Positions 3,874-43,738 of a stretch of DNA of 64,000 bases are shown here, piece by piece; position 1 is the stretch's first letter; every line of letters starts with the position of its first letter. The notes below the pieces were generated by a model, which was given only the letters and a program-made list of their open reading frames with translations, searched no databases and had not been told where the DNA came from. A program made the position numbers and the translations under genes. Source of the DNA: a virus; IMG/VR virus record IMGVR_UViG_3300010316_000005, positions 32,001-96,000 of that record; one strand, given 5' to 3'.

Positions 3874-4234
3874 TATATTTAAAGATTCAAAGGACTTCAT
3901 GGTGGCCATTGATCAGCACGAACCTAACCAAGCACAATTTGACTTGTATGTTAAACTAATCGACGAAGAACATAGCGAACTACATGACGCAATTGAAGCA
4001 GATGATCGGGTGGAGCAGCTCGACGCTCTTGTTGACATCTTAGTTGTAACTGCCGGAGCAATCAACTCAATGGGTGCAGATGGCGAAGGCGCGTGGAACG
4101 AAGTGATGCGCACTAACTTTGCTAAGGTCGATCCAGAAACAGGCAAGGTTCGCAGACGCGAGGACGGAAAAGTTTTGAAAGGGCCTAATTGGGTTCCGCC
4201 TAATTTAGAGCCTTTCTTGTCTAAATTAAAGTAA
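3866..4234 (+). CDS. MazG-like / PRA-PH-type NTP pyrophosphohydrolase
   Basis: LIDEEHSEL...EQLDALVDIL...EVMRTNFAK...REDGKVLK. Confidence 0.8.
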   Translation: MTNIFKDSKDFMVAIDQHEPNQAQFDLYVKLIDEEHSELHDAIEADDRVEQLDALVDILVVTAGAINSMGADGEGAWNEVMRTNFAKVDPETGKVRRREDGKVLKGPNWVPPNLEPFLSKLK

Positions 4235-4886
4235 ATCTGTTTTTATACAATTTGTTAGGATTATACCTAACAGCCCAAAATAGTCCGCTGCGGTTTATCC
4301 CTAGCGGACTTATTTTTTCTTCAAAATTATGTCTATTGAACATTGTCCGTTCTCCAGTGTGCATGTCTAGTAGTACATAATCTTTAACAGGAATTGGTCG
4401 AATTTCGTTTCGACGCTTAACTCCTTCTGAAATCTTTTTAGAAACTTTTTTAGAGGTAGTATTACCGTAATTCCAGTGGCTTTTTCCAGTCATGCGATCT
4501 ATGTGTTGAGCCACTCTTTCTTTGTCATCTTTCCAGCCGTGTCCTTTCTTTGCTTTAGAAATGTTTGCCTTTGTTTCTTTTGACATTACCCAGCCAGCAT
4601 TGCCATCGCCGCCGTCTGTTTTATTATGTAATATGCCAGTACCGTTGTCTATGCGCCCATGCCATCTTATTAGGCGCCGTTCTAATGCTAACGCGCCTAC
4701 ATCTGTTAGATTAGATTCTAAGATGAAAATATTCGAAAAGTCTTTTTTTGGAAATATAGTTCTGTCTGATCTAGCCCATGCTCGTTTACCACATCCTTTA
4801 CCTATGTAATAAGGTGTTCCGTTATCTCTTATGTAAGCATAGACGTAAAAATCTTTAGGCAAGTTGTTTTTAGAGTAAATATTCAT
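4221..4886 (-). mobile_element. Free-standing GIY-YIG homing endonuclease with NUMOD3-like motifs
   Basis: YVYAY...PYYIGKG...R...LERRLI...LHNKTDGGDG; MSKETKANISKAKKG; antisense insertion. Confidence 0.85.
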
Positions 4887-4913
4887 GCTGATAGTTCCTT
4901 TTAAAATTCAACT

Positions 4914-4962
4914 GTTAGAGTAGTCAGGTACGCCAATACCGTGGACTACACTTATATTTATA
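4914..4962 (-). promoter_or_regulatory. Late promoter TATAAATA followed by structured 5' leader hairpin
   Basis: TATAAATA at 4962-4955; GTAGTC-CAC-GGTA-ttggcg-TACC-T-GACTAC at 4949-4920. Confidence 0.7.
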
Positions 4963-4980
4963 CAAAAGATATAAAAGAAC

Positions 4981-5043
4981 AGGGAAGATGTTCTTAAACC
5001 CGCAGACTGGAAAGCACCTGAACTAGCACCTTTCCTAAAATAA
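4981..5043 (+). pseudogene. Orphaned duplicate 3' end of MazG-like gene
   Basis: Translates REDVLKPADWKAPELAPFLK*, versus current C-terminus REDGKVLKGPNWVPPNLEPFLSKLK*. Confidence 0.8.
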
Positions 5044-5046
5044 CCG

Positions 5047-5075
5047 TTGACTCCTTGTAATTTTTATGCTATAGT
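5047..5075 (+). promoter_or_regulatory. Sigma70-type promoter, extended -10
   Basis: TTGACT-17-TATAGT with TG. Confidence 0.7.
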
Positions 5076-5099
5076 GTAATGAATTACAAGGAGACTTTT

Positions 5100-5636
5100 A
5101 TGGCCACACACGGCACAATCGACTTAGAGACGCTAGACGTTATTCCGACAGCAACCATACTCAGCTTAGGTGCTGTTAAATTTGATCCGTTCTCTAACGC
5201 AGAACCACATTCAGAATTATATCTTAAAATTTCAATCGACGAACAAGACGCTCTTGGTTGTACTGTCGCCGACAGTACAATCGAATGGTGGGGCAAACAA
5301 GATCCTGAAATTATGGAAGAAGCGTTTGACCAGAACGGCGCAGTGTCAGTTGAAGAAGCACTGCGTCAAGTTAGCAAATGGGCAGTGGGAGTAGATGAAT
5401 TTTGGGGACAGGGGTACGGCTTTGACTTCACAATTCTCGAAGATATGTATCGCAAAGTAGGGAAGCCTATTCCATGGCAGTTTTGGCAAGTAATGGACAG
5501 TCGTACTATTACAACGCGTATGCCACGTGATCCACGCAAAGATATGCAGACCAGCTTGCACAATGCACTTGCTGACGCATACTTTCAGGCAAAGTCAATT
5601 CAAATTATTTTTAAACATAACGGGTGGACTAAATGA
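5100..5636 (+). CDS. DEDDh 3'-5' exo(ribo)nuclease, Rv2179c-like
   Basis: IDLETL...FDFTIL...HNALADA; AGGAG RBS favours ATG 5100. Confidence 0.8.
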   Translation: MATHGTIDLETLDVIPTATILSLGAVKFDPFSNAEPHSELYLKISIDEQDALGCTVADSTIEWWGKQDPEIMEEAFDQNGAVSVEEALRQVSKWAVGVDEFWGQGYGFDFTILEDMYRKVGKPIPWQFWQVMDSRTITTRMPRDPRKDMQTSLHNALADAYFQAKSIQIIFKHNGWTK

Positions 5637-5821
5637 ATCCTGTCAGCAGAACATTAAGCGATGAAGAACAAAAATTAATCGACGACTATATCAAAAAAGG
5701 CGGCAACGTTACACAGTGTGACAAGTATGCAGTATCTGAAGAGATTGAATATACTGGTGGGTTCTACCAAAAGCGTAAGCGTAAAAAAGAGGCAGAGGCC
5801 AAAGATGACGACAAAGGTTGA
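5633..5821 (+). CDS. Small hypothetical protein
   Basis: ATGA-type coupling; LIDDYIKKGGNVTQC. Confidence 0.55.
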   Translation: MNPVSRTLSDEEQKLIDDYIKKGGNVTQCDKYAVSEEIEYTGGFYQKRKRKKEAEAKDDDKG

Positions 5822-5987
5822 TCTAACTGATTTCAATTTAACTCCTGATGATGCAGTCAATGCTCTTTTATGGATAATTGAAAATCAAGGACCACTGGGC
5901 AAGAAGAGAAAGTTTAGCGATCTAAAAATTGTTGAGTTCGAGGATGGCCGCGAAGCAACACATTTCATACTTAGATGGAGTAAGTAA
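5805..5987 (+). CDS. Small hypothetical protein
   Basis: Internal ATG 5805 of the tracked ORF, GAGG upstream. Confidence 0.45.
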   Translation: MTTKVDLTDFNLTPDDAVNALLWIIENQGPLGKKRKFSDLKIVEFEDGREATHFILRWSK

Positions 5988-5988
5988 G

Positions 5989-6201
5989 ATGGTAAAATGG
6001 TGGGACTGGATTATTGCCTTTGTTTGGGCAGGTATAATGATGGCACTCTTAGCCAAAGGGGTTACTGCTCCTACTTGGTGGGAACCACTCTTCTACGGTT
6101 TTGTTACTGGAATGGTTTACAGATTTTGGCGTGACTACTATTGCATTTATCGACTGGCATGGGAGATTGTAAAAAATGACAAACATATTCGAAGAATGTA
6201 A
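5989..6201 (+). CDS. Small Trp-rich 2-TM membrane protein
   Basis: Two hydrophobic stretches; GGAG RBS. Confidence 0.55.
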   Translation: MVKWWDWIIAFVWAGIMMALLAKGVTAPTWWEPLFYGFVTGMVYRFWRDYYCIYRLAWEIVKNDKHIRRM

Positions 6202-6385
6202 GTGTCCAACTGAATACAGCATTGAGCCGCACGGAGATGGCTTTGCGCTCTATCTCGGGCGTTGTGGCCATCGACACGGGTACAATTTAATTAATATGAA
6301 AGAGCCGGCGTGGAATTTTGATGCCGAGCATCTCTCACGTTTGCTAAATATCGGCGCAGAACATTATAAAGAGGAAAATGAATGA
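6176..6385 (+). CDS. Small hypothetical protein
   Basis: GGAG RBS; coupled to clamp loader. Confidence 0.55.
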   Translation: MTNIFEECKCPTEYSIEPHGDGFALYLGRCGHRHGYNLINMKEPAWNFDAEHLSRLLNIGAEHYKEENE

Positions 6386-7302
6386 AGAACTTATGGGTAG
6401 AATCATACCGTCCACACACACTAGACGGTTATGTATTTAAAGACGACTCTCAAAAAGATCAGATCAAAAGTTGGATTAAAGCAGGTACAATTCCGCATTT
6501 GCTACTAAGTGGCAGTGCAGGAATCGGCAAAACAACTATTGCTAAGATTCTGATCAATCAGCTTGATGTACAAGAGCATGATGTACTGTACGCCAACGGA
6601 TCAAAAGAGGGTAGAAAGATTGAATGGGTCGACAAGCTGATTATGTTCTGTCAGACTATGCCGTTTGGCGATTATAAGATTGTGCTCATTGACGAAGCTG
6701 ACTATATGAACTTGCACTCTGTACAGCCTGCGTTGCGCAACTTGATGGAAGAGTACAGCTCTAGCGTAAGGTTTATTCTAACGTGCAACTATCCAAACAA
6801 GCTCATGCCAGCTATTCATAGTAGATGTCAGCATATGCACTTTGAAAAGATTGACAAGACAGAGTTTACTGCTCGTGTTGCAGAAATTCTTATCACTGAA
6901 GGTGTTGAGTTTAAACTCGATGTCCTCGACAGCTACGTTAAAGCGTACTACCCAGACCTAAGAAAAGCAATCAATACTGTACAGCTAAACAGCCAAACTA
7001 ACACATTGGTTAGTGCAGCAGCAAGTGGGAACAGCGCAGACTATCATCTACAGATGGTTGATTTATTTAAAGCAGGCAAAGTCGCCGAAGCAAGAAAACT
7101 AATTTGTTCGCAAGTACAGCCGGAAGAGATTGACGAAATCTATCGTTGGTTATATACTAACATTGACTTGTTTGGCGACACTGAAGACCAACAAGATGAT
7201 GCTGTCCTAATTATTAAACAGGGCATTGTCGATCACGCACTAGTAGCTGATCCAGAGATCAACCTAAGTGCAACACTTATTCAGCTAGGAAGAATAAAAT
7301 GA
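6382..7302 (+). CDS. Clamp loader AAA+ subunit (gp44/RFC-like)
   Basis: LWVESYRP, Walker A GSAGIGKT, Walker B LIDEAD, SRC motif. Confidence 0.92.
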   Translation: MKNLWVESYRPHTLDGYVFKDDSQKDQIKSWIKAGTIPHLLLSGSAGIGKTTIAKILINQLDVQEHDVLYANGSKEGRKIEWVDKLIMFCQTMPFGDYKIVLIDEADYMNLHSVQPALRNLMEEYSSSVRFILTCNYPNKLMPAIHSRCQHMHFEKIDKTEFTARVAEILITEGVEFKLDVLDSYVKAYYPDLRKAINTVQLNSQTNTLVSAAASGNSADYHLQMVDLFKAGKVAEARKLICSQVQPEEIDEIYRWLYTNIDLFGDTEDQQDDAVLIIKQGIVDHALVADPEINLSATLIQLGRIK

Positions 7303-7559
7303 GCAGGCGGCAGCGACTACTAAAGCAACATATGGTTTCGGTATCTATGCAAGCGTTGTATATGGTATTGGCAATTGTAACTGCTGGTGTCGCTGCTTTT
7401 TCGATGTACGCAGGATCTGCTTTGATATTTATATTTTATGTCGCAGCGATGGTAGTCGGCGCTGGCGGCATAGTGTTTCAAATTTGGGGAAGTGTAATTC
7501 TCAAAGAACACGCACAGGACTACACTTTAAACAGTTTAAAAGGAGATTACGATGAGTAG
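7299..7559 (+). CDS. 2-TM membrane protein
   Basis: Two hydrophobic helices. Confidence 0.55.
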   Translation: MSRRQRLLKQHMVSVSMQALYMVLAIVTAGVAAFSMYAGSALIFIFYVAAMVVGAGGIVFQIWGSVILKEHAQDYTLNSLKGDYDE

Positions 7560-7830
7560 AGTTTGGAGGAGAGTTTTCAAGAAACTAGGAAAGGGCCTGT
7601 GGATTTTTAGTAAATTTTTTGCCGGTTGGGCAGCAGGATGCGCAGTAACAATTGGGGCACTTTACTTAGTTGGTGTTCGAAACCCGGACGCACTGTATAC
7701 TATCGGATCACTTACTCCGATTATTATTGGTTTCGTATACATCATTGTTAAAGAAATGTACACTGACGCAAGGGACGAAGTAGAGCGCGAAAATCGCCGG
7801 ATGATGAATAGCATTAGTGGAAAATATTAA
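7552..7830 (+). CDS. 2-TM membrane protein, paralog of 8187
   Basis: Shared RVW...LW N-terminus and EVEREN.RMM.SI C-terminus. Confidence 0.65.
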   Translation: MSRVWRRVFKKLGKGLWIFSKFFAGWAAGCAVTIGALYLVGVRNPDALYTIGSLTPIIIGFVYIIVKEMYTDARDEVERENRRMMNSISGKY

Positions 7831-8184
7831 ATGACCTACCTAGTAACTGACAACTGCATACGCTGTAAACACATGGACTGTGTAGCAGTATGTCCAGTAG
7901 ATTGCTTTTACGAAGGCGAAAATATGTTAGTCATTGACCCCGTTGAATGTATCGACTGCGGTGTGTGCGAACCCGAATGTCCTGTTAACGCTATTGTTCC
8001 TGACAATGAGTTAAAAGGCGATAACTTGGCTAAATGGCTGAAGATTAATACCGACTACGCAGCAGAATGGCCTAACATTACACAAGTACGAGAAGAGGAT
8101 CGACCTGCTGATAGAGAAGAGTGGGACGGCGTTCCGAACAAGTATGAAGATCACTTTTCAACAGAACCCGGACAGGGAGACTAA
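7831..8184 (+). CDS. fdxA: Ferredoxin, FdxA type (3Fe-4S/4Fe-4S)
   Basis: [30 protein letters not shown]...[12 protein letters not shown]. Confidence 0.93.
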
Positions 8185-8186
8185 CG

Positions 8187-8495
8187 ATGAAACGAGTATG
8201 GATGAAGTTTTTACAGAAGGCCGGAGCAAGTTTATGGAAGACATTTTTACCTGTATTAGGAACGTTATTTGTAGTAGCAATATATCTTGGATTGGCGGTT
8301 GGGATTTCTTTTAGCTTACAGTTTGTTTTCCCCGGAGGACCAATTGGCTTTTTTCTATTAATTAGTTTGGCGCTACCTATGATAACCGGAATGGCAATAT
8401 ACAACGGGCGCAAGTTATATGCCGAGGCGAAAAAAGAAGTCGAGCGTGAAAATAAAAGAATGATGGCTAGTATAAAAGGCGATACTTATGATTAG
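8187..8495 (+). CDS. 2-TM membrane protein, paralog of 7552
   Basis: See 7552. Confidence 0.65.
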   Translation: MKRVWMKFLQKAGASLWKTFLPVLGTLFVVAIYLGLAVGISFSLQFVFPGGPIGFFLLISLALPMITGMAIYNGRKLYAEAKKEVERENKRMMASIKGDTYD

Positions 8496-8970
8496 AGCTA
8501 TACTCGCGTGTGACGATAATTGGGGGATCGGGAAGAACAATGATCTTCCTTGGCCGCACAATCCTGCTGACTTAAAATGGTTTAAAGAATCAACTGATGG
8601 CGGAGTTGTGGTTATGGGCAGGAACACTTGGGATAGCTTGCCTAAGCAGCCGTTGCCCAACAGACGCAATGTTATATTGTCATCGTCGATAGGCAAAATA
8701 CGATCACCATTTATAGAAGTTATTAAACCCGACATCTTTGGCTCTAGAATAAATGTACTCGAGCAGGAAGATGCACCAGTTTGGTTTATTGGCGGAGCAC
8801 ATCTTATTAATAGTTATCTTAGAATCATAGATGAAATCTGGCTCAGTCGAATTGCTGGCAACTATAACTGTGATGTTTTTCTGCCCCGTACGGCAATTGA
8901 GCTTGCCTACGAGTTACAGAGTAGCGAAAGCAATAACGGAGTTCATATAGAAAAATGGGTAAAAGTATAA
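8488..8970 (+). CDS. folA: Dihydrofolate reductase
   Basis: GIGKNNDLPW...DLKWFK...VVMGRNTWDSLP...LPNRRN...IGGA. Confidence 0.93.
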   Translation: MIRAILACDDNWGIGKNNDLPWPHNPADLKWFKESTDGGVVVMGRNTWDSLPKQPLPNRRNVILSSSIGKIRSPFIEVIKPDIFGSRINVLEQEDAPVWFIGGAHLINSYLRIIDEIWLSRIAGNYNCDVFLPRTAIELAYELQSSESNNGVHIEKWVKV

Positions 8971-8983
8971 AAAAAGGAATAAA

Positions 8984-9850
8984 ATGAAAGAATATTTAGA
9001 CGCACTAGAATTTATATTAACTAACGGTAAAGACCGTGGCGACAGAACAGGAACCGGTACACGCGGAGTATTTGGATATCAAATGCGTTTCAACTTGCGT
9101 AAAGAATTCCCAGCAGTAACTACAAAGAAGCTAGCGTGGAAGTCAGTAGTCGGAGAGCTACTTTGGATGTTAGAAGGCAGCTCAGACGAGCGCAGGCTTG
9201 CAGAGATTACATTCGAAAAGCCACGTGAAGAATTAATCGGCAAGAATACCATTTGGACTGCTAATGCCGACAAGCAAGCCAAGGACCTTGGTTATGTTAA
9301 TACCGACACCGAAAAAGATCTTGGTCCTGTTTACGGACATCAATGGCGTAGTTGGGATGCACAACTTGGCTTTGTAGATCAAATTGCAGAAGTACTGGAT
9401 CAAATGTATTACGATCCGAACAGTCGCAGACATATTGTTAGTGCGTGGAACCCTGATAAAGTGGGCGTAATGGCATTGCCGCCTTGTCATGCAATGTTTC
9501 AATTTCACATACAAGACGGTGAACTAAGTTGTCAACTGTATCAAAGGTCAGTTGATGCACCACTTGGTTTGCCATTTAATATTGCTAGTTACAGTTTGTT
9601 AACACATATGTTTGCCCAATTACTCGGGTTAAAGGTTGGTGAATTTATCCATACCTCTGGCGATTTACACATCTATCAGAATCAAATAGAAAGAGTAAAA
9701 GAACAGCTTACAAGAGAACCTCTTCCAGGGCCGACGTTAGAAATGCCTAAATTTTCAAATTTAGACGAGTTAATAAAAACAACACCGAGTCAATATAAGT
9801 TGATAAATTATCAACATCACCCTGAAATTAAGATACCGTTTGCTGTATAG
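8984..9850 (+). CDS. thyA: Thymidylate synthase
   Basis: DRTGTGT, LGPVYG.QWR, MALPPCH, YQRSVD..LGLPFN, GDLHIY. Confidence 0.96.
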   Translation: MKEYLDALEFILTNGKDRGDRTGTGTRGVFGYQMRFNLRKEFPAVTTKKLAWKSVVGELLWMLEGSSDERRLAEITFEKPREELIGKNTIWTANADKQAKDLGYVNTDTEKDLGPVYGHQWRSWDAQLGFVDQIAEVLDQMYYDPNSRRHIVSAWNPDKVGVMALPPCHAMFQFHIQDGELSCQLYQRSVDAPLGLPFNIASYSLLTHMFAQLLGLKVGEFIHTSGDLHIYQNQIERVKEQLTREPLPGPTLEMPKFSNLDELIKTTPSQYKLINYQHHPEIKIPFAV

Positions 9851-9856
9851 TTTTTC

Positions 9857-9895
9857 TTGCTGTTCCTTTCAATAAGATAAAGAAAGGAACAGCAA
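9857..9895 (+). promoter_or_regulatory. RBS-sequestering hairpin upstream of homing endonuclease
   Basis: Perfect 14-bp inverted repeat TTGCTGTTCCTTTC / GAAAGGAACAGCAA covering SD and A of ATG. Confidence 0.8.
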
Positions 9896-10704
9896 TGCAA
9901 GGAATATATTATATAGAAAATACTAAAACTCAGCGTAGATATTATGGGAGTTCATTTGATATAGTAAAAAGACTAACGCAACACCGACAAGACTTAGAAA
10001 AAGGAAAACATCATAATATACAACTACAAAGAACTTATAACAAGCATGGAAACATATTTCGTTATGTAACGTTAAAAGAGACTAATTTTAATACTCGAGA
10101 AGAACTATTAGAATATGAACAGACATTTTTAGATAAAAACATCAATGGCTATAACATGGCACCCGCAAACGGCGGCAATATCCTAGGGGCACATCCAAAT
10201 AAAGATCAAATTAGAGAAAAAATTATAAAAACTCATAGTGACACTTTGAAAAGTATGAGCATTGAAGAAAAAAAGAAAAAATTTGGTCGTCCTAAAACTA
10301 AAAATGGAAACTGGAAACAAGGAGCAACTGTTAACATTTGTCCTAACTGCAATAGTTCAATGGGGTATTATGCAAAAACTTGCGGAGAATGCAGAGACAG
10401 AACAAAAGATAATAATCCGTTTTATAGAAAGTCGCACACTGATAAAACTAAATCTATTTTAAGAGAAAAACTGTCAGGCGAAAATTCGTGGATTAAAAAC
10501 ATTGATCCTAGTGAATTGCCTTATACAAAACAATATGTAATAGAATATCCCACCGGATTCTTAAAAGAAGTATATGGCCTAAAAACTATAGCAGAAGAAT
10601 TTAATACAAGTATAGCAAATTTACACGCAACAATAAATCGTATGAGACAAGGAAAAATTCCAACAAGGGGAACTTTTAAAGGAATGAATATCTATGAAAA
10701 ATAA
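9895..10704 (+). mobile_element. Free-standing I-TevI-like GIY-YIG homing endonuclease
   Basis: GIYYI...YYGSS...R...HHNIQLQR...E...GYN; CPNC/CGEC zinc finger; NPFYRKSHTDKTK NUMOD3. Confidence 0.9.
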
Positions 10705-10756
10705 ATTAATTGGGTATATCCCAATGGATAGCATAAAGGCGCCAATGGCAGTATGA
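10703..10756 (+). pseudogene. Orphaned duplicate 3' end of thyA
   Basis: Translates KLIGYIPMDSIKAPMAV*, versus current KLINYQHHPEIKIPFAV*. Confidence 0.8.
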
Positions 10757-10998
10757 CCGAGGTAGTAACAAACATCGACTATGTTGAGAAATTTGCTTAC
10801 TTGCCTACGCAGGTCTCTAGTGGCGAAAGGGTGTGGTGGGATTATTATTGGATAAAAATAGTATCCTACGATCCTTCTTTAAAAATTGCGATTGATCAGG
10901 GATACGATTACTACTTAGCTAGTAAGCACATACGACTTTCATCTCGAGATAAAGAAAAAGATGAAATGTGGAGAGCAATAACCGATGATGGGAGTTAA
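10753..10998 (+). CDS. Hypothetical protein, paralog of 10985
   Basis: KFAYLPTQVSSGERVWWDYY. Confidence 0.6.
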   Translation: MTEVVTNIDYVEKFAYLPTQVSSGERVWWDYYWIKIVSYDPSLKIAIDQGYDYYLASKHIRLSSRDKEKDEMWRAITDDGS

Positions 10999-11998: not shown

Positions 11999-12021
11999 TA
12001 AGTGTCCTCCTTAGGGAAATG

Positions 12022-12070: not shown

Positions 12071-12149
12071 CCCCATTTTGTAATCGTTAAAAGATCACTT
12101 AACTTTTTAATTGCGATAAATAAGTATAATAAAAGTAGGTACAACCATT

Positions 12150-34471: not shown

Positions 34472-34481
34472 GGAGTAACAA

Positions 34482-34841
34482 ATGACCAAAAAAGTAATGA
34501 CGTTCATTAAAATTAGAACAGAGTTTGAAGGATACCATTTTTATCCCGGGGCTGGAAAAATTGATGAAAGAATTAAATTTTTAGAAAACTGTCACCGACA
34601 CACTTTTAAAGTAGAGGTAAAGATATCAGTTACACATTTAGACAGAGAATTAGAGTTTTTTCTTGTAAAATGGAATTTGCAAGATTTTATTAAATCAGGA
34701 AATTATAATCATAAATCATGTGAGATGATTGCTACTGATATATTAGAAAATCACCTACTGCCTGCCTATGGTGAAAGATATTATGAAATTACTGTGTCAG
34801 AGGACGGCGAATCCGATGGTATTATCGAGTATACTCCTTAA
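34482..34841 (+). CDS. queD: 6-carboxytetrahydropterin synthase-like (T-fold)
   Basis: FEGYH...CHRHTF...SCE.IA...VSED; locus context. Confidence 0.65.
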   Translation: MTKKVMTFIKIRTEFEGYHFYPGAGKIDERIKFLENCHRHTFKVEVKISVTHLDRELEFFLVKWNLQDFIKSGNYNHKSCEMIATDILENHLLPAYGERYYEITVSEDGESDGIIEYTP

Positions 34842-35553
34842 TTAATTCTTCTATAGTTATAGAACATCGAGTCCTCTTAGATCTATTAACTGATTTAGGC
34901 AATAATTCAAGATTAGAAAAATGTCCAATAATGGCAGGATCTATCTTTTGCCTAAATCCTTCTGTAATACTAAATTTATGATCTAGTTCGTAATCATTTC
35001 CTCTCTTTAAATTTAGAGGATTAATGATATGCTGGTAATGTTTCCAACTCTTATTAGTGTAATTAAGGACTTGTTCTCTATATAACATCCAATCATTTTT
35101 TTGTTCTTTGGGTACAGCTAGGCCTCTAGATATCTTAGTTTTTGTTGCATTTGCATAACACGCCGTATCCCTCATTTTTGCCTTTTTAGACAATCTTTGT
35201 TTAGATTTTTCGCTATGACTCTTTCCGTACATAGGGTTATTATTCCCAGAGTGTCCGCCGCGATTGCTGACCGCATTAGAAATCTTGTTGCCTTTCTCTG
35301 CAATCCAGGCACTATCTAAGTGCAAGTCTTTGAGTGCTGAATTGCCACGGCGACTCATCATTTTCATATGATTTGTTCGATCTTCCTTAGTCATGCTCTT
35401 CTGCCTAGACGCTTCTGCTTTTTTAATAAATCCGGGACATTGTGTAATCTTTTCGACACAACGCATCTTTTTAGAATTATAACTGATGAAGAATGCTTGT
35501 TCACTACACAAGTGGCACAAGTTGTTAGGATTATGATCGTTAAGTTTTGGCAC
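34822..35553 (-). mobile_element. Free-standing HNH homing endonuclease with NUMOD3 and Zn-finger
   Basis: CHLC..C..C; NPMYGKSHSEKSK; ELDHK...NLELL...NRSK. Confidence 0.8.
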
Positions 35554-35592
35554 GGTTCTATCTCGCTATCGTTATGTTATTTATCTTTTCAG

Positions 35593-35621
35593 TTGACTAC
35601 GTCTAGCATATATGCTATTAT
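35593..35621 (+). promoter_or_regulatory. Sigma70-type promoter, extended -10
   Basis: TTGACT-17-TATTAT with TG. Confidence 0.6.
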
Positions 35622-35684
35622 AATAGCGTAAGTAAAAATAAGTTTCTTACATATGTTAATTTTTTATCCAAGAGAGCTAAACCA

Positions 35685-35876: not shown

Positions 35877-35894
35877 TTCTTGCCAGCTACCTGG

Positions 35895-35927
35895 AAAATG
35901 ACGCCTTCTTAGGCGTCATTTTTCTTA
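35895..35927 (+). terminator. Intrinsic terminator
   Basis: AAAATGACGCCT-tctt-AGGCGTCATTTT then T-rich. Confidence 0.8.
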
Positions 35928-35935
35928 TTTAATTA

Positions 35936-35964
35936 TTGACACACTATTCACTTTATGTTATCAT
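35936..35964 (+). promoter_or_regulatory. Sigma70-type promoter
   Basis: TTGACA-17-TATCAT with TG. Confidence 0.65.
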
Positions 35965-35985
35965 ATGCTTATAAGGATTTAAACG

Positions 35986-36015
35986 ATGACCATTTATATT
36001 ATAGAAAAAATATAA
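35986..36015 (+). pseudogene. Orphaned duplicate 5' start of glycosyltransferase
   Basis: TAAGGAT + MTIYIIEKI* directly before TAAGGAT + MTIYVIDLE. Confidence 0.65.
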
Positions 36016-36024
36016 GGATAAAAT

Positions 36025-37116
36025 ATGACTATATATGTTATAGATTTAGAAAGCGTTCAGTCAAGGTACACTGCTCAATGGAAAGAGCATTTGCCTAAGC
36101 AATTGATGCTTGCTACAAATAAAACTGTCGAAGTTATCAGTGGTGGAGAAACTCCGCAAGCAACTACTCCGGGTGCGTTTCTCAACTTCGGCGGCACGAA
36201 CGTGTACAAGTCTAAGCAGTTAGAAATAATCGGCGAAAAGTTTTGCAATGGCGAAATCAATGACGGCGATTACTTTTTATACACTGATGCGTGGAACCCT
36301 ACAGTTATTCAGTTAAAGTATATGAGTGAACTACTAGGCGTTGACATTAAGATAGGCGGCATGTGGCACGCCGGTTCGTATGACCCGCAAGACTTTCTTG
36401 GACGACTAATAGGCGATGCTCCCTGGGTGCGTTCAGCAGAACACAGTATGTTTAGCTGTTACGATGACAACTTTTTTGCAACGCAGTTTCATATCAATAT
36501 GTTTGCTAATGAGACATTTGCATGGAACGATGGCAATGGCTGGCACTGCGATACACCACAAGAAGCTAATACTTCAATTAAGTTAGTTGGCTGGCCTATG
36601 GAGTATCTTCATGATAGCCTAGCAGAATATAAAAACATGCCTAAAGAAAACCTTATATTGTTTCCACATCGCATTGCGCCAGAGAAGCAAGTTGATATCT
36701 TTAAGGATCTAGCAAAGCAGCTTCCCGAGTATGAATTTGTAATATGTCAAGAACAGCAACTTTCTAAAGAGGAATACCACAGCTTGCTCGGACGTGCTAA
36801 GGTAGTGTTTAGCGCAAACCTACAAGAAACACTGGGCATTAGCTGGTACGAAGGCGCGTTGGTTGATGCTATTCCTATGGTGCCCGATCGCCTAAGTTAT
36901 AGCGAAATGGCAATACAAGAATTTAAATACCCAAGTGCGTGGACCCAAGACTGGGATTCATATCAAGCTAATAAAGAAGCACTTGTCGGACGTCTGAAAT
37001 ATTATATCGAGCATTACGAAGAATTTGATGACGTATTGGACTATCAAGTATCAAAGCTAAACAAAGAATTCTTTAGCGGTGATGCTCTTTACAAAGGAAT
37101 TAAAGATGGAAGATGA
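36025..37116 (+). CDS. GT-B glycosyltransferase
   Basis: FPHRIAPEK...QETLGISWYEG..VP.RLSY.E (EX7E-like). Confidence 0.75.
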   Translation: MTIYVIDLESVQSRYTAQWKEHLPKQLMLATNKTVEVISGGETPQATTPGAFLNFGGTNVYKSKQLEIIGEKFCNGEINDGDYFLYTDAWNPTVIQLKYMSELLGVDIKIGGMWHAGSYDPQDFLGRLIGDAPWVRSAEHSMFSCYDDNFFATQFHINMFANETFAWNDGNGWHCDTPQEANTSIKLVGWPMEYLHDSLAEYKNMPKENLILFPHRIAPEKQVDIFKDLAKQLPEYEFVICQEQQLSKEEYHSLLGRAKVVFSANLQETLGISWYEGALVDAIPMVPDRLSYSEMAIQEFKYPSAWTQDWDSYQANKEALVGRLKYYIEHYEEFDDVLDYQVSKLNKEFFSGDALYKGIKDGR

Positions 37117-38083: not shown

Positions 38084-38610
38084 TGAACAAGAAATATTAT
38101 AACTGGAAAGATGTAACGTCAGCAGCAACTTCAATTGCTATGCAGATGTATAAAGACAATTATCGTCCTGATTACATTGTAGGTATTACCCGCGGTGGCC
38201 TGCCACTAGCTACTATACTCAGTCATATGACTAACATTCCGATGGAGACATTAAAAGTACAATTACGAGCCAGTGAACAATGTGAAACAAATTGCTGGAT
38301 GTCCGAAGATGCGTTCGGGTATGTATCCGACCAAGCGACTTACAAAAGCCGATGGGATGTTAGTCAACGAAAAAAGATACTCATCGTCGACGACATCAAC
38401 GACACGGGTGCAACATTTGACTGGATCAAAGAAGATTGGCGCAGCGGGTGTCTGCCTGGCGAGGATACTTGGGATACAGTATGGCACAATACAGTTAAGT
38501 TTGCAGTAATGACTGACAATCTAAGTAGCTCGTTCAAAACAGATTATGCATGGGACGAAGTAAACAAAGCCGAGAACGATGTCTGGCTAGTATACCCTTG
38601 GGAGGCTTAA
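38080..38610 (+). CDS. Purine phosphoribosyltransferase (Gpt-like)
   Basis: VGITRGG, ILIVDDINDTGAT PRPP loop, VYPWE. Confidence 0.88.
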   Translation: MMNKKYYNWKDVTSAATSIAMQMYKDNYRPDYIVGITRGGLPLATILSHMTNIPMETLKVQLRASEQCETNCWMSEDAFGYVSDQATYKSRWDVSQRKKILIVDDINDTGATFDWIKEDWRSGCLPGEDTWDTVWHNTVKFAVMTDNLSSSFKTDYAWDEVNKAENDVWLVYPWEA

Positions 38611-39039
38611 TTGCCACAACTAATATATCTAGATGCCACGAAGTTTGAGATATATGAATATTTTCCCAACGCTAGCCGAGGTTATAACCAGCAATGGGAT
38701 CTCAGATTGGAAGAAGAATATCCATATCACGTATACGCACACACCGAAGATGATGCTAGAATATTAAAGAACGTCCGAAAGTATATAGAGAAGCGTGGCA
38801 TTGATGATGTATTTTACGGAAAGATAGACAAGAGTTATAGCTATTGTTATAACATAGAAAAAGCAAACTCGTGGGATCAAAATTGGGATCGGGTAACAAA
38901 TCACTGGTGGAAATTTTCCTTTGGTAGCGATGTAGACCTAAATATGCTTGTACTACAGCACCAATGTTTAAAATCGGAAATGACTGACTTTCATCCCGAA
39001 TATGAATGGCACAACGAAACTAACACTAGAAAATGGTAA
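38611..39039 (+). CDS. Hypothetical protein
   Basis: GGAGG RBS, TTG start. Confidence 0.55.
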   Translation: MPQLIYLDATKFEIYEYFPNASRGYNQQWDLRLEEEYPYHVYAHTEDDARILKNVRKYIEKRGIDDVFYGKIDKSYSYCYNIEKANSWDQNWDRVTNHWWKFSFGSDVDLNMLVLQHQCLKSEMTDFHPEYEWHNETNTRKW

Positions 39040-39052
39040 AAAGGAGAATACT

Positions 39053-39253
39053 ATGAGAGAAGAAATGATAAAAGTAGCAATAGCCCATGCAAAGGCACAT
39101 ATCGGTAAGCATAAGATGAACGTAGAAGTTTATCTTAAGAACCCTGTAGGCATTGGAGAGCACTCCGATATTATGGAGGCTATTGAGATTGAAATTGAAC
39201 AAATGGCAAAGTACCACGATCAGCTTGAAATGCTTGAGAAATATTTCAAGTAA
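39053..39253 (+). CDS. Small phage protein
   Basis: AAGGAG RBS; NVEVYLKNPVGIGEHSDI. Confidence 0.7.
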   Translation: MREEMIKVAIAHAKAHIGKHKMNVEVYLKNPVGIGEHSDIMEAIEIEIEQMAKYHDQLEMLEKYFK

Positions 39254-39256
39254 TGC

Positions 39257-39285
39257 TTGACAAAAATCTAAATACAAGGTATAAT
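39257..39285 (+). promoter_or_regulatory. Consensus sigma70 promoter for folE
   Basis: TTGACA-17-TATAAT. Confidence 0.85.
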
Positions 39286-39338
39286 AGTTACAAGGACTAT
39301 TATACCTAGTCATCCACGACAAAAACTCGGAGAATTTA

Positions 39339-40022
39339 ATGAAGAAATATGAAGAAATTATCGCACGTTGCAAAAACGCTGACAAGCGATATTGGGCAGG
39401 CGATAATGTCCACCGCCTTATTTATGAAGGTGAAAAAGAACAACTAATCGACGAGGCAACACAAGCATTTGAAACTGTACTCGATACTCTAATTATTGAC
39501 AGACATAATGATCCTAACAGTCAAGGCACAGCAAGAAGACTTGCTAAGATGTACTTTAACGAGATCATGGCAGGACGATACGACGGGCGACCGTCGGCAA
39601 CAGCGTTTCCGAATGATACTGAAGATCGTTATGAAGGTATGTTAGTAGTGCGTAGTGAACTTAAATCAATGTGTTCGCATCATCACCAGCCTGTTACGGG
39701 CGTAGCATACATTGGCATCATTGCTGCTGACAAGCTTATTGGATTGAGTAAGTATACCCGACTGGCTCAGTGGTGCGCAAGGCGCGGCACATTACAGGAA
39801 GAACTTGCTAACGATATTGCTAGAGAAATTAGCAATGCGACCGGCGCAGAAAATCTTGGTGTTTACATTCAGGCAACACACGGCTGTTGTGAGAATCGAG
39901 GCATTATGGCAACTAGCAGTCTTACGCAAACCACAGTACTTAAAGGCAGCTTCAAGGATGATGCAGGAACAAAGAAAGAATTCTTTGATAATATTAAACT
40001 GCAACAGGAGTTTTCAAAATGA
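39339..40022 (+). CDS. folE: GTP cyclohydrolase I
   Basis: T..RLAKMY, SMCSHH, IGLSK..R, LQE, HGCCENRG. Confidence 0.93.
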   Translation: MKKYEEIIARCKNADKRYWAGDNVHRLIYEGEKEQLIDEATQAFETVLDTLIIDRHNDPNSQGTARRLAKMYFNEIMAGRYDGRPSATAFPNDTEDRYEGMLVVRSELKSMCSHHHQPVTGVAYIGIIAADKLIGLSKYTRLAQWCARRGTLQEELANDIAREISNATGAENLGVYIQATHGCCENRGIMATSSLTQTTVLKGSFKDDAGTKKEFFDNIKLQQEFSK

Positions 40023-40312
40023 AGTGGGCCAAGAGAAAAGTAAAACGGATGTTAGAAAGATTGCTGTTCGAAGAGCCTACATGCGACTCTGGAGAAAATA
40101 CAGTCTCTTGTAAACCATCTATAAATTCAAGGATTGATACTGACCCTGCTATAACTTTTAAAATCTACAGCGCAGTGAACGGAAAAGTTATAGAGTTTTA
40201 TAAGTATGACCGAGTTACTGACAAAAGTCATACTAGTGTGTATATTGTTGGAAAAGACGAAGACGTAGCAGAGCGAGTTGGAAGATGTCTTAGTTTAGAG
40301 TTGTTAAAATGA
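40019..40312 (+). CDS. Hypothetical protein
   Basis: ATGA coupling. Confidence 0.6.
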   Translation: MKWAKRKVKRMLERLLFEEPTCDSGENTVSCKPSINSRIDTDPAITFKIYSAVNGKVIEFYKYDRVTDKSHTSVYIVGKDEDVAERVGRCLSLELLK

Positions 40313-40379
40313 AGAACAAGGGCATCGGCGGCACACACAAAGCATTTGCTAATCAACTATATAATACATTGGAGATAAA

Positions 40380-41252
40380 ATGAAATTAAGATATTCAGAA
40401 GCGTTTTATAGCGTACAAGGCGAAGGTATGTTTGTAGGAGTGCCTAGCGTATTTCTACGTACCTTCGGATGCAACTTCCGTTGCATGAACTTCGGGTTGC
40501 CGCGCGGTACTCCAAAAGGTAAATACAATCCAGAGGTGAAGGCATTAATCGATCAAGGCGTGCATAAGACAACTAAGGAGTTTACAGATCTGCCAATCGT
40601 CCATACAGGATGCGATACATACGCAAGTATCTATCCCGAGTTTAAAGATCTCGTAATGGACAGAACAATTGACGAAGTTGTAGAGCATCTTCTTAGTCTA
40701 ACGCCAGAAGGCAAGTGGACTATGGATAACGGACAAGACATCCATCTTATCCTAACTGGCGGTGAACCTTTGCTTGCTTGGCAGCGTTTATACGTAGAGC
40801 TGTTTGAGCATCCAAGAATGAAGGACTTACGCAATGTTACAATTGAAACAAATACTACACAATATTTACACCAAGAGTTCAGAGACTACATCAAGAATAA
40901 CGCAGGATTTAAAACTACATTTTCATGTAGCCCGAAGCTCTCTGTTTCAGGAGAATCTTGGGAGGACGCTATCAAGCCTGATGTTGCTGCTAACTATGCT
41001 AGCATTATTAACGCTAACATCTATTTTAAGTTTGTGGTCGCTGACGAAGTTGATGTCGAGGAAGTTGCTAAGGCTGTTGAAGAATACAGAAACTTCGGAG
41101 TGGATTGTCCTGTCTACCTCATGCCGCTCGGCGGGCGTTCCGAGGGTTATGCACTTACAGAAAGAAAAGTCGCAGAACTCGCAATGGAACTCGGATGGAG
41201 ATTTACTCCAAGATTGCATATTGGATTATTCGGAAATGCCTGGGGGACTTGA
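40380..41252 (+). CDS. queE: 7-carboxy-7-deazaguanine synthase (radical SAM)
   Basis: FYSVQGEG..G.PSVFLR..GCN.RC...CDT, LTGGEP, IETN, SPKL, RLH. Confidence 0.9.
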   Translation: MKLRYSEAFYSVQGEGMFVGVPSVFLRTFGCNFRCMNFGLPRGTPKGKYNPEVKALIDQGVHKTTKEFTDLPIVHTGCDTYASIYPEFKDLVMDRTIDEVVEHLLSLTPEGKWTMDNGQDIHLILTGGEPLLAWQRLYVELFEHPRMKDLRNVTIETNTTQYLHQEFRDYIKNNAGFKTTFSCSPKLSVSGESWEDAIKPDVAANYASIINANIYFKFVVADEVDVEEVAKAVEEYRNFGVDCPVYLMPLGGRSEGYALTERKVAELAMELGWRFTPRLHIGLFGNAWGT

Positions 41253-41296
41253 CAGTCTCCCAGCTTCAAGAAACAGTATTGTAAAAGGAAAGAATA

Positions 41297-41464
41297 ATGA
41301 AGGAACCAAGAATAGTTAAACTAACTACTGAACTTAAAGAAACAGTAGATCGTCTTAATCGAATTACAACAATTTTAGATAAAGCAGGAGTTGCATACAA
41401 GCTTCCTCGTAACAATGACGGGACACACGAAGTTACTTATGTAATACAAAGGGTAGAATACTAA
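41297..41464 (+). CDS. Small hypothetical protein (55 aa, not in ORF track)
   Basis: AAGGA RBS, TAATG coupling. Confidence 0.55.
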   Translation: MKEPRIVKLTTELKETVDRLNRITTILDKAGVAYKLPRNNDGTHEVTYVIQRVEY

Positions 41465-41934
41465 TGAAACAATGGATTAAAAAGATAACAGGAATAGCTG
41501 ATTTAGAAGCGGCGGCGCAAGCAGCAACTGACAAACGTATTGCCGAAGAAGAACGAATCATCGAATTAGCAAAAAAGAAGGTTGACGCTGAAGAGACTAC
41601 AAAGCAAGCTGAAGACGCTGCCGAACTTGCAAAGATGTCTCCCAAAGAGCGGGCAACTGCTAAAGGTGAGCCTTGGATCAACGTCCTCGGCGTGAAGGTT
41701 AACGAGGACAATATCCGCAATGGGTTCTTTGAACTTGATTGGAACGAGTTGTTTCTTGATGAGTTGCGCTTGGCTGGTTACGGTCTAGAAGGCGATCCTG
41801 AAGAAGAGATTGTAGATCGTTGGTTCAGAGATATCGTATCCCAGATGCTTGAAGCAGAAGGAATGGATACAAACAGAGGTTCTGGTTATATCAGTGTAGT
41901 TCCATTGGACAAAGGCAAATCAGAAGTATCATGA
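41464..41934 (+). CDS. Hypothetical phage protein
   Basis: GEPW...NGFFELDWN...IVDRWF. Confidence 0.65.
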   Translation: MKQWIKKITGIADLEAAAQAATDKRIAEEERIIELAKKKVDAEETTKQAEDAAELAKMSPKERATAKGEPWINVLGVKVNEDNIRNGFFELDWNELFLDELRLAGYGLEGDPEEEIVDRWFRDIVSQMLEAEGMDTNRGSGYISVVPLDKGKSEVS

Positions 41935-41954
41935 ACACATACATCCTAGTTTAA
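41931..41954 (+). pseudogene. Orphaned original 5' start of RNase H-like gene
   Basis: ATGA-coupled MNTYILV* versus MNKTYIIIDTAN at 42749. Confidence 0.65.
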
Positions 41955-42612
41955 GAAACTTCATAGGCTGTATAATTCTTATATGGCCTATTTTTTTTAA
42001 TATATCTATGAAATACTTGATAATTTAAGTTTTGTGTGTTACACCATTCCCTAAGACTAAACACAGAAAATTCTTGGTTAGTTTCTAAATTACAAATTAT
42101 CCATTTTTAGCAGTCGTTTTATACTTTATGTCAGACAACGTCTTTCCAGTATTCCACGGTTTACGTCTCTTAGTAGCATTACTAATTTTGTTAGCATGAT
42201 CTTTAGATATAGTCCGGCCCTTTTGTGCTAAACTCATTCGTGCCTTTTGTTCTAGTGATCGTTTCTTTCCGGTATTATATTCGTGTAAATCAAATTCGAC
42301 CATAGCATATGTTTTGTTTAACCATTTATCAGAAGTTGCTGCCTTTAGCCTTAACAAAACTTTATGCTCCTATATTTTAGCAGACTTGGCATCAGAAAAG
42401 GTGTTTCTAACTTGTATTATATCAGGCTCTCCGTATTTTTCTCTATATTTAGAGACTTCTTTACTCGAAGTAAAATAGGTTGTCCAAAGATCATTAGGGT
42501 GACAACCTGTCTCATAAAGACAATATTTTTGTTTAGCATACCTCATTCCATAATAGTACTTGTTTAGATCAGACTATCCGATTAGATATGTGTAAGGTGT
42601 ATAAATATTCAT
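41951..42612 (-). pseudogene. Degenerate GIY-YIG-like/NUMOD3 homing endonuclease (2 in-frame TAG, 1 frameshift)
   Basis: MNIYTPYTYLIG*SDLNKYYYG...YFTSS...KI*EHKVL...WLNK; frameshift in A-run near 42105. Confidence 0.8.
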
Positions 42613-42634
42613 GCTGGAACTTCCTTTCTTGTTC

Positions 42635-42687
42635 TAGAGTAGTTAGGGAGACTACCACATATCCCGTGAACTACACTACTATTTATC
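42635..42687 (-). promoter_or_regulatory. Late promoter and structured 5' leader hairpin (copy 2)
   Basis: GATAAATA then GTAGTT-CAC-GGGA-(12 nt)-TCCC-T-AACTAC. Confidence 0.7.
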
Positions 42688-42695
42688 TTTATCTC

Positions 42696-42724
42696 TTGAC
42701 ATACTTAAATAATCCTGCTATAAT
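42696..42724 (+). promoter_or_regulatory. Consensus sigma70 promoter, extended -10
   Basis: TTGACA-17-TATAAT with TG. Confidence 0.85.
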
Positions 42725-42748
42725 GTATTAAACAAGTTGGGATACGTT

Positions 42749-43738
42749 ATGAATAAAACTTATATAATAATCGATACGGCTAATGTGTTTTTTCGAGCGC
42801 GACACGTTGTACGGGGAGATATCGACACTAAGGTCGGCATGGCGCTACATATTACACTAGCAGGCGTTAGAAAGGCATGGCGTGACTTCGACGCAGACCA
42901 CGTTGTCTTTTGTCTAGAAGGCCGCAGCTGGCGTAAAGACTTTTACGAGCCTTACAAGCGCAACCGCAAAGAATCTCGCGACGCTATGACAGAATCGCAG
43001 CAAGAAGAAGATCAGATCTTCTGGGAGATCTTTGACGAGTTTAAGGATTTTATTACAACTAAGACTAACTGCACAGTATTACAGAATCCTGTACTAGAAG
43101 CAGATGATTTGATTGCAGGCTGGGTACAGAATCATCCCAACGACAATCACGTCATTATCAGCACAGACGGCGACTTTGCGCAGTTGATTGCTCCTAACGT
43201 CAAGCAGTACAACGGCGTAAGCAACGTAACTATAACGCACGAAGGCTACTTTGACGAGAAAGGCAAGCATGTAATTGATCGAAAGACCAAGCAAGCCAAG
43301 CCTGCGCCGGATCCCGAATGGCTGTTGTTTGAAAAGTGTATGCGAGGCGACACTAGCGATAACGTGTTTAGCGCATATCCAGGTGTTCGTAAGAAGGGCA
43401 CTAAGAATAAAGTAGGTCTAACTGAAGCGTTTGAAGATAAACATAACAAAGGCTTTACTTGGAATAACCTTATGTTACAGCGTTGGGTTGATCACAATGG
43501 CGAAGAGCACCGTGTAATAGACGACTATACACGTAACGTTACGCTATGCGACTTAACCGCACAACCTGCAAATATACGCTTAGAAATTCTTCAATCAATA
43601 AGTGAAGTTGAAACTAAACAAGTTAAACAAGTCGGTATGAGACTTATGAAGTTCTGCGCCAAATGGAGTCTTGTAAGCATTGCTGATCAAGCGGCGCAGT
43701 TCGCAGAGCCGCTTTCAGCGAGGTATAATGATGATTAA
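42749..43738 (+). CDS. 5'-3' exonuclease / T4 RNase H-like
   Basis: IID..N, WRKDFYEPYK.NR, EADD, STDGDF.QL, GDTSDNV. Confidence 0.9.
   Translation: MNKTYIIIDTANVFFRARHVVRGDIDTKVGMALHITLAGVRKAWRDFDADHVVFCLEGRSWRKDFYEPYKRNRKESRDAMTESQQEEDQIFWEIFDEFKDFITTKTNCTVLQNPVLEADDLIAGWVQNHPNDNHVIISTDGDFAQLIAPNVKQYNGVSNVTITHEGYFDEKGKHVIDRKTKQAKPAPDPEWLLFEKCMRGDTSDNVFSAYPGVRKKGTKNKVGLTEAFEDKHNKGFTWNNLMLQRWVDHNGEEHRVIDDYTRNVTLCDLTAQPANIRLEILQSISEVETKQVKQVGMRLMKFCAKWSLVSIADQAAQFAEPLSARYNDD

Follow-up and report, generated by a model that had tools for sequence, protein, structure and literature searches.

The stretch of DNA analysed here, referred to as the window, comprises 64,000 nt (bases 32001–96000) of the 175.7-kb virus record IMGVR_UViG_3300010316_000005, an uncultured marine T4-like phage. 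Its DNA polymerase is of the T4 gp43 type with at most 50% identity to that of any isolate, and its plus strand carries early-type genes up to ~51 kb, a run broken by four endonuclease genes. Three of these, free-standing and of the homing type, lie beside complete genes for a MazG-like pyrophosphohydrolase, a thymidylate synthase (thyA) and an RNase H, and beyond each endonuclease is a second, diverged copy of one end of the neighbouring gene, hereafter called the orphan. A first-pass annotation made from the nucleotide letters had reported duplicated ends at these three genes and a further duplicated start at 35986, and all four are where it placed them. Its set of endonucleases stood only in part, as the RNase H-side copy is a pseudogene and an endonuclease at 34822–35553 had been missed.

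A megablast search of the isolate phage collection with both regions gave no match, and the best isolate protein matches do not exceed 50% identity (MazG 47%, DNA polymerase 50%). Since the isolate collection holds no close matches, all comparative evidence below is metagenomic and derives from IMG/VR contigs, given as L-numbered loci, with G001 as the closest relative.

The MazG-like gene (3866–4234, plus strand; Pfam PRA-PH, 6e-10) ends in ...DGKVLKGPNWVPPNLEPFLSKLK and a stop codon. Endonuclease 1 (4221–4886, minus strand), an intact, free-standing protein of 221 aa, probably of the GIY-YIG type, with NUMOD3 motifs (2.4e-7), is convergent with it and overlaps it by 14 nt. In an alignment of 51 sequences, residues Y14, Y16, Y26, Y27, G29, R35, E69 and N88 are invariant. 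Ten of the 11 best PDB matches (Foldseek) to its AlphaFold model (pLDDT 86.7) are UvrC GIY-YIG domains, these being weak matches with a probability of up to 0.97, TM ~0.55 by target and E 0.15–0.75. The leader of the endonuclease (4887–4980, minus strand) contains the T4 late-promoter-like box TATAAATA, a hairpin and a ribosome-binding site, and ends at a conserved cassette junction, ...AAGAACAGG, found also in L320, L325 and L326. The orphan MazG 3′ end (4981–5043, plus strand; REDVLKPADWKAPELAPFLK, stop) follows, the best match in the genome to the native ends of relatives, and 3′ of it come a native promoter (5047–5075) and an exonuclease gene, as in alleles that are empty of the endonuclease.

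Such empty MazG alleles were found in the syntenic contigs L042, L055, L016 and L002, where the gene ends in ...LKPEGW..PELA.F.K and a stop, and where the TTGACTCCTTG...CAAGGAG promoter and the exonuclease gene come within ~60 nt of this end. The DNA alignment of the window with these alleles picks up again at the orphan and continues through the same promoter. The replacement end, comprising the last ~20 codons of MazG (about 4172–4234; VLKGPNWVPPNLEPFLSKLK, stop), is linked to the endonuclease, and its GP(N/D)WVPPNL motif is common to the window and the occupied alleles L324, L325 and L326. A pattern scan of IMG/VR for endonuclease 1 yielded no relatives, but a large protein search with contig look-ups did find homologues (72–79% identity), which always face a MazG-like gene in convergent orientation, within surroundings that otherwise differ. 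L320, L325 and L326 combine a PPNL-type MazG end, a nuclease homologue and an orphan of their own (EVLKPEGWQAPQLAQFIK or EVLKPEGWTAPELSQFIDK, each with a stop) directly after the edge ...AAGAACAGG. Between L325 and L326, which come from different samples, a tract of 1,036 bp is 100% identical whereas the flanks are 35–78% identical. This tract spans the DGK|VLKG codons of MazG, the nuclease, its leader and the orphan, to ~95 nt inside the next gene, and we read it as direct evidence that the composite block was recently transferred. Separately, the small gene past the orphan in these two loci (MKLPTQLTGLG...) ends in ...GW(K/T)AP(E/A)LA(Q/P)F.. and a stop, like a second MazG-type tail fused on; this tail may be an orphan that a previous invasion left behind.

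The thyA gene (8984–9850, plus strand; Pfam 3.9e-97) ends in KLINYQHHPEIKIPFAV and a stop codon and is followed by endonuclease 2 (9895–10704, plus strand), an intact, free-standing I-TevI homologue of 269 aa with a GIY-YIG domain, a zinc-finger linker and a DNA-binding domain. The catalytic GIY-YIG domain is above the Pfam cut-off (PF01541, 4.4e-6); residues 2–92 match the catalytic domain of I-TevI (PDB 1mk0/1ln0, 4e-17) and residues 129–203 its DNA-binding domain (PDB 1i3j, 1.3e-8), while the match to Pfam I-TevI_ZnF reaches 18.3 bits, under the cut-off of 27. An Rfam scan of the whole window returned no family matches, hence no intron model and no self-splicing group I intron around endonuclease 2, whose open reading frame (ORF) has only 44 nt on its upstream side and none downstream. 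Judged by homology, endonuclease 2 should work like I-TevI but, being free-standing, is no intron endonuclease. The idea in the first-pass annotation that these elements invade coding targets with no need for splicing agrees with the lack of any matching intron model in the window. A 14-bp hairpin (9857–9894, plus strand; −21.1 kcal/mol, z −4.8) sequesters the Shine-Dalgarno of endonuclease 2 and is kept in L084, where its loop holds GATAAATA, a T4 late-promoter-like box. The hairpin suggests late-only translation, like that of the T4 intron endonucleases.

The orphan thyA 3′ end (KLIGYIPMDSIKAPMAV, stop; 10703–10756, plus strand) is ATGA-coupled to the gene at 10753–10998 and agrees with the L090 native end in 16 of 17 residues. 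Empty alleles without the endonuclease make up ~70 of 80 related loci; they end in ...Y.PM.SIKAPMAV and a stop, and several have an ATGA overlap with the next gene. The end HHPEIK[IM]PFAV, followed by a stop, was seen only in loci with a GIY-YIG gene downstream. While the last 18 codons of thyA (9797–9850) are the copy duplicated by the orphan, the last ~290 nt (about 9554–9850) travel with the endonuclease: over this tract the identity of the window to occupied loci rises from ~65–80% to 80–90%, and that to empty loci falls to 47–72%. A tree of the 3′ part of the gene (nt 571–864) places the window with L081 and L084 in a clade with 100% support and a long branch. The three are not together in the tree of the 5′ part (nt 1–570), for which an approximately unbiased (AU) test rejects that clade (p 0.028); the separate trees for body and terminus that had been suggested as a check do, at thyA, disagree.

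Other thyA loci show this arrangement in several states. L084 has an 86% identical copy of endonuclease 2 at the same place. In L318 thyA ends in LINYQSHPTINFPFST and a stop and is followed by a 58% identical nuclease with no orphan, making this locus a candidate for the home configuration of the thyA nuclease. L081–83 combine the new thyA end with their own orphan (PMPSIKAPMAV, stop) and a nuclease with an internal deletion. The orphan of L081 starts 5 codons later than that of the window, which implies two distinct, independent joins. In L151 a hybrid thyA end and an orphan are present and the nuclease is wholly gone. A chimeric endonuclease occupies the corresponding place after thyA in L319 (1743–2315), with an HNH N-terminal domain and a C-terminal domain 62% identical to residues 166–268 of endonuclease 2; a nuclease domain has thus been swapped here onto a conserved DNA-binding module.

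At the third site the duplication affects a gene start. The RNase H / 5′–3′ exonuclease gene (42749–43738, plus strand; Pfam 9.5e-19) opens with a recoded replacement start of ~30–45 nt (~8–13 codons; MNKTYIIIDTANV). Its first 30 nt have 63% identity to relatives, compared with 81% among the relatives, and only these ~30 nt are unusually diverged. The orphan start, MNTYILV followed by TAA (41931–41954, plus strand), is ATGA-coupled to the upstream gene at 41464–41934, so the coupling that had been described for the thyA and RNase H orphans was confirmed at both. Approximately 20 nt of this orphan are native, corresponding to the first 20 nt of the start in relatives, and its stop codon is derived from the cassette. 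Empty alleles were found in 12 directly coupled relatives and, separately, in the closest relative G001 (L316); in all of them the upstream gene is ATGA-coupled to M[NST]TYILVDTAN.

Between this orphan and the gene lies first a terminator-like hairpin (41963–41991, plus strand; a 13-pair stem, then T7) at the left cassette edge. Endonuclease 4 (42097–42612, minus strand; NUMOD3 5e-7) is a decayed Seg-like GIY-YIG/NUMOD3 pseudogene, ~48 aa shorter than intact homologues and with two in-frame TAG stops (42574–42576 and 42370–42372). The divergent control region that follows (42613–42748) contains the endonuclease leader on the minus strand, with a GATAAATA box and a hairpin, and on the plus strand the RNase H promoter (42696–42724), a 12/12 match to sigma-70, and a ribosome-binding site. 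The first-pass annotation had expected a promoter and ribosome-binding site to come with an insertion at a 5′ end; the cassette on the RNase H side brings both, together with a stop codon for the orphan, a terminator and the recoded start.

Intact 220-aa homologues of endonuclease 4 (68–91% identity) are divergent from RNase H in five loci (L327, L329, L331, L332 and L333). Their far-side orphans read MATYVIVD-stop (behind its own promoter), MTTYILVD-stop (ATGA-coupled) and MTYIFV..-stop, and each type matches the starts of empty alleles. The cassette edge TAA(G/C)AAACTTC..GGCTG is common to the window, L327 and L331, and the cassette-borne TAA at this shared edge closes the orphan in L327, L329 and L331. 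L327 and L329 possess the same promoter as the window and an identical recoded start, MNKTYIIIDTANVFF. Against L327, identity peaks at 98% over 42746–42795, with 62–78% in the rest of the RNase H gene.

Endonucleases 1 and 4 also share an alignable leader (4887–4980 and 42613–42690, both minus strand), consisting of a (T/G)ATAAATA box, a hairpin, AAAGGAA and ATG. The hairpin arms are conserved (GTGTAGT.CACGG / ..CT.ACTACTCTA), with modest folds (z −1.5 for endonuclease 1 and −0.3 for endonuclease 4). Small minus-strand ORFs at 43823–44546 were considered as a further decayed nuclease; they have no Pfam match, so nothing identifies them as one.

The two copies of each end are strongly diverged, with a nucleotide identity between current and orphan end of 46% for thyA, 56% for MazG and 67% for RNase H. 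Because of this divergence, a genome-wide self-similarity scan of the terminal 18 aa of each gene against its own flanks was only borderline (MazG 38 and thyA 35, against a null 99.5th percentile of 34). Scans for duplicated ends are dominated by a pair of tandem paralogous small genes (7552–7830 and 8187–8495) with similar N- and C-termini, unrelated to any endonuclease. As the divergence blunts plain self-similarity, the informative test is a query with the ends of relatives, and the native termini of endonuclease-free relatives were compared with a six-frame translation of the whole 175.7-kb genome (~351,000 positions; 99.99th percentile of the background 17–19, for thyA 19). The orphan was the top match for thyA (score 78, the gene's own end 44) and for MazG (58, own end 34), and ranked second for RNase H (31, a 7-codon match, own start 40).

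Two further cases lie outside the window, both given here in coordinates of the whole genome. The gene at 4928–5359 ends in ...CLAGKRKAKTKYGIVEQD and a stop, with a convergent Seg-like endonuclease at 5356–6165 and, at ~6320–6378, an orphan ...CLVSKRKSEKYH.. that overlaps the next ATG, so the layout of a swapped 3′ end recurs across 4928–6378. At the portal locus (157375–159677, both genes included), an intact GIY-YIG gene of 182 aa (157375–157923) shares the residues of the first 5 codons, MSWKK, in different codons, and its stop overlaps the portal ATG. On its sequence, we interpret the portal site as a gene start that an endonuclease has taken over in frame.

Our reading of these loci, to which we assign a probability of about 0.8, is that three free-standing homing endonuclease genes sit at the edge of a host gene whose last ~18–20 codons (MazG, thyA) or first ~8–13 codons (RNase H) are foreign, and that the orphan is the native end. 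Comparison with empty alleles identifies the orphan beyond each nuclease as the original terminus of this genome. The first-pass annotation had called the orphans ancestral, and at all three sites the gene body of the empty alleles does continue directly into an end like the orphan, and the downstream context is unchanged. The functional termini, by the same comparisons, are foreign and co-occur with the nuclease in other genomes. That endonuclease and replacement terminus belong together as one unit, as further claimed, is supported by the conflict between the thyA trees, by homologues with the same junction and their own orphans, and by the identical 1,036-bp cassette. A block of replacement end, nuclease and leader, with or without the orphan, has evidently moved between diverged phages, and all three cassettes show the same-site presence/absence polymorphism with co-conversion of flanks that is the hallmark of homing endonucleases. 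Nucleases also decay in place while the swapped terminus stays, as in endonuclease 4, L081 and L151. Relatives that lack the endonuclease yet have the current terminus and an orphan had been named beforehand as evidence to the contrary. That criterion has to be recast, since alleles of this kind, their nuclease truncated or gone, do exist (L081–83, L151); we read them as later stages of decay, not as a refutation.

Phage genomes are mosaic, and the orphans could in principle be scars of ordinary mosaic recombination, with the endonucleases nearby by coincidence and playing no part in making or spreading the swapped ends. The stretch between the upstream gene and RNase H does vary in relatives and holds unrelated inserts, and the fourth duplication has no nuclease. 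We nevertheless consider such a coincidence highly improbable. All three orphans in the window flank a nuclease, as do the cases at 4928–6378 and the portal gene, and nuclease, junction and orphan recur jointly in at least eight other contigs. Moreover, the swapped part of thyA forms clades exactly with nuclease presence, no orphan was found in a search of 80 MazG loci lacking a nuclease, and among 80 thyA loci orphans occur only where a nuclease-type end is present.

To account for swapped ends, we propose that in a home lineage the nuclease lies just outside the gene with no orphan, a state that L318 would represent for thyA and L324, where a MazG-side nuclease homologue is present and an orphan absent, for MazG. 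In genomes without it, the nuclease would cut the conserved coding sequence at the gene terminus, near the inner edge of the later orphan. The break would be repaired from the donor, by homologous recombination within the gene body and, with the far flank non-homologous, by an illegitimate join, leaving the recipient terminus distal to the break as the orphan. The inner edge of the orphan would mark the position of the break. One-sided double-strand-break repair of this kind has been described for T4 (PMC2988022). Afterwards the orphan and the downstream DNA would provide a second homology arm, and the composite could home as a unit. The 5′ version would have to restore expression, hence its stop, terminator, sigma-70 promoter and ribosome-binding site. 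The occupied allele is probably uncuttable because the target is split and the replacement end has only 46–67% nucleotide identity, a divergence that should also disfavour deletion by recombination between the two copies.

Several observations weigh against this account. No significant GIY-YIG match to endonuclease 1 was found in Pfam, and its best fold match has an E of only 0.15. The three MazG orphans agree in their junction and all lack the GK codons, a pattern that a single ancient insertion followed by spread would fit as well as repeated invasion. The fourth duplicated start has no nuclease, unlike the layout at RNase H, and we infer both the cut position and the immunity of the occupied allele from the alleles themselves. 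Finally, the left boundary of the swapped part is not fixed, lying ~290 nt from the end in thyA, ~60 nt in MazG and ~30–45 nt from the start in RNase H; what we call the replacement end may thus be flanking sequence that was simply co-converted, and not a defined part of an element.

The last point bears on whether the replacement end is, like the HomR of MobA, an adaptive and integral part of a purpose-built element, recoded by selection so as to destroy the target while the protein is kept functional. Consistent with this, the identical tract of L325 and L326 begins exactly at the start of the duplicated segment, GP(N/D)W was seen only in occupied MazG alleles, and no other 50 nt are as well conserved between the window and L327 as the recoded RNase H start (98%). 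The MobA insert itself has a homologous region of 67–81% identity that replaces the deleted target (10.1101/2022.08.31.505936). However, PPNLKPFL-type MazG ends and YQHH-type thyA ends are also native in endonuclease-free lineages, which favours a donor terminus that was carried along over purpose-built recoding. In L318 and L324, moreover, the nuclease comes right after the gene and the orphan is absent, and the nuclease-linked thyA tract extends over ~290 nt with a gradient, as co-conversion predicts. We regard purpose-built recoding as unlikely on this evidence, while giving it considerably more weight than coincidental mosaicism.

The nearest known systems are the mORF gene hybrids of fungal mitochondria, which have the same layout, and the nearest phage precedent is MobA/gene 60. 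The mORF hybrids are described from atp6 of Allomyces macrogynus and from atp6, atp9, cox2 and nad3 of Glomus (PMC3630166), and correspond to the fungal end duplication that the first-pass annotation had mentioned. As here, the 3′ end of a gene has taken up a free-standing endonuclease ORF along with a diverged C-terminal segment of foreign origin, without any intron, and the native C-terminus there is left downstream as an unexpressed duplicate (PMC3630166). The native copy of an mORF hybrid matches a close relative while the inserted copy is 64–81% identical (PMC3630166); likewise, in all three genes of the window the functional terminus is foreign and the orphan matches insert-free close relatives. 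The hosts in our case are phage genomes, in which recombination would take place during co-infection, and the nucleases are GIY-YIG/NUMOD3 and I-TevI-like whereas those of mORFs are mostly LAGLIDADG. Unlike mORFs, two of the nucleases here are on the opposite strand (convergent or divergent), not in phase with the host gene, and a 5′-end version exists with its own stop codon, terminator, promoter and ribosome-binding site.

The T4 MobA/gene 60 element is an HNH endonuclease in a topoisomerase gene, as outlined in 10.1101/2022.08.31.505936 (citing Bonocora et al. 2011). In both systems a phage homing endonuclease lies within coding sequence with no intron or intein (10.1101/2022.08.31.505936), the insert encodes a homologue of the target segment in which the cut site lies (67–81% identity in MobA), and the nuclease is often decayed or lost later while the coding parts derived from the insert remain. 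MobA differs in that the gene is split internally into two polypeptides, the native segment is deleted and a 50-nt translational bypass is needed; here a terminus is swapped, the gene product remains one polypeptide and the native segment survives as an orphan.

Endonuclease 2 further resembles I-TevI of the T4 td intron in being homologous to both of its domains and in its association with thymidylate synthase. I-TevI is encoded by a self-splicing intron in the active-site region of thyA, while in the window there is no intron and the site is the last 18 codons. Seg-type free-standing genes of T4 spread by double-strand-break repair with co-conversion of flanking markers, much as proposed here, and control by a late promoter and a translational hairpin is also common to T4 endonucleases (PMC2988022). 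The T4 Seg and Mob genes as described sit between genes, unlike the cassettes of the window, and the T4 mobile-element review makes no mention of duplicated gene ends (PMC2988022). A full-text literature search turned up no description from phages of a duplicated gene terminus beside an endonuclease, although absence there is not proof of absence. Three points are notable in the present genome: 3′ and 5′ versions occur together, the 5′ cassette is a complete expression module, and the comparisons with relatives give unusually direct support.

Free-standing endonucleases of phages are, in most descriptions, restricted to intergenic DNA except where an intron or intein shields them. On our reading, those in the window occupy coding DNA by replacing the terminus of a gene. 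The evidence leans somewhat towards homing by terminus swap being a general, so far unnamed route into phage coding sequence, free of introns and inteins, which affects both gene ends and also accounts for the 4928–5359 and portal genes. It would explain foreign ends on conserved phage enzymes and, if general, would be a steady source of chimeric gene ends. If the inner edge of an orphan does report the cut site, sequence alone would suffice to find the targets of uncharacterised endonucleases; the orphan boundaries would then be predicted target sites for three such nucleases, among them the I-TevI relative, whose thyA target would be new. For annotation, terminus swaps would account for orphan mini-ORFs and short “duplicated” gene fragments, both of which mislead gene prediction and the clustering of pangenomes. 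The metagenomic series may be seen as a natural life cycle, from a home state with no orphan, through occupied alleles with an orphan, to a truncated and finally a lost nuclease.

The fourth duplication differs from these cases. A 39-nt tandem duplication (35970–36045, plus strand) contains the ribosome-binding site and first 7 codons of the gene at 36025–37116. Its copy 1 forms a 9-codon mini-ORF, MTIYIIEKI and a stop (35986–36015), and the gene at 36025 starts MTIYVIDLE.... Upstream are a stem-loop terminator (35893–35924) and, directly after it, an 11/12 sigma-70 promoter (35936–35964), a combination we take to resemble the promoter-early stem-loop modules of T4-type phages. In relatives a small upstream gene is coupled directly to the homologue of 36025–37116, with no duplication and no endonuclease; G001 has no close homologue of this gene and is therefore uninformative. 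The two copies in the window abut, with no nuclease or remnant in between, and at the start of the homologues in 74 related loci no nuclease was found, the larger gaps holding unrelated ORFs. The duplicated start noted in the first-pass annotation is thus real, but it cannot be tied to an endonuclease.

The loss of a nuclease and slippage would explain this duplicated start equally well. A plus-strand nuclease gene, joined to the gene start as it is at the portal gene, may once have stood here and been lost; deletion of the portal nuclease gene would leave a layout like that at 35986. Slippage during replication stands about an even chance of being the correct explanation for this site; the tandem duplication would then be unrelated to any endonuclease and possibly kept as a translation-coupling upstream ORF. 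A 39-nt period with abutting copies and nothing nuclease-like in between is what slippage predicts, no relative has a nuclease at this gene start, and copy 1 has its stop within the second ribosome-binding site, 9 nt upstream of the real ATG. Yet ~17% of positions differ between the copies, which is much for a recent slip, and a terminator and promoter absent in relatives were gained at the locus. The portal gene of the same genome also shows how an intact nuclease with shared first 5 codons gives a second start, and L151 how a new end and an orphan persist after full nuclease loss. In L307 (4001–5174), the homologue of 36025–37116 is split into two ORFs, and the last ~19 residues of the first (HIDLFTDTMMDDYDVDMNR) recur where the second begins.

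Endonuclease 3 (34822–35553, minus strand; NUMOD3 8.9e-8), with an HNH-type C-terminal motif seen by eye only, is an intergenic insertion ~430 nt upstream of 35986 that overlaps the end of the gene at 34482–34841 by 20 nt and is absent from all 74 related loci. It was considered as a further case of a swapped end and rejected, since the end of the neighbouring gene matches the endonuclease-free loci L259 and L284 and neither an orphan nor a terminus duplication was found. A new sigma-70-like promoter (35593–35621) precedes the gene that follows endonuclease 3.

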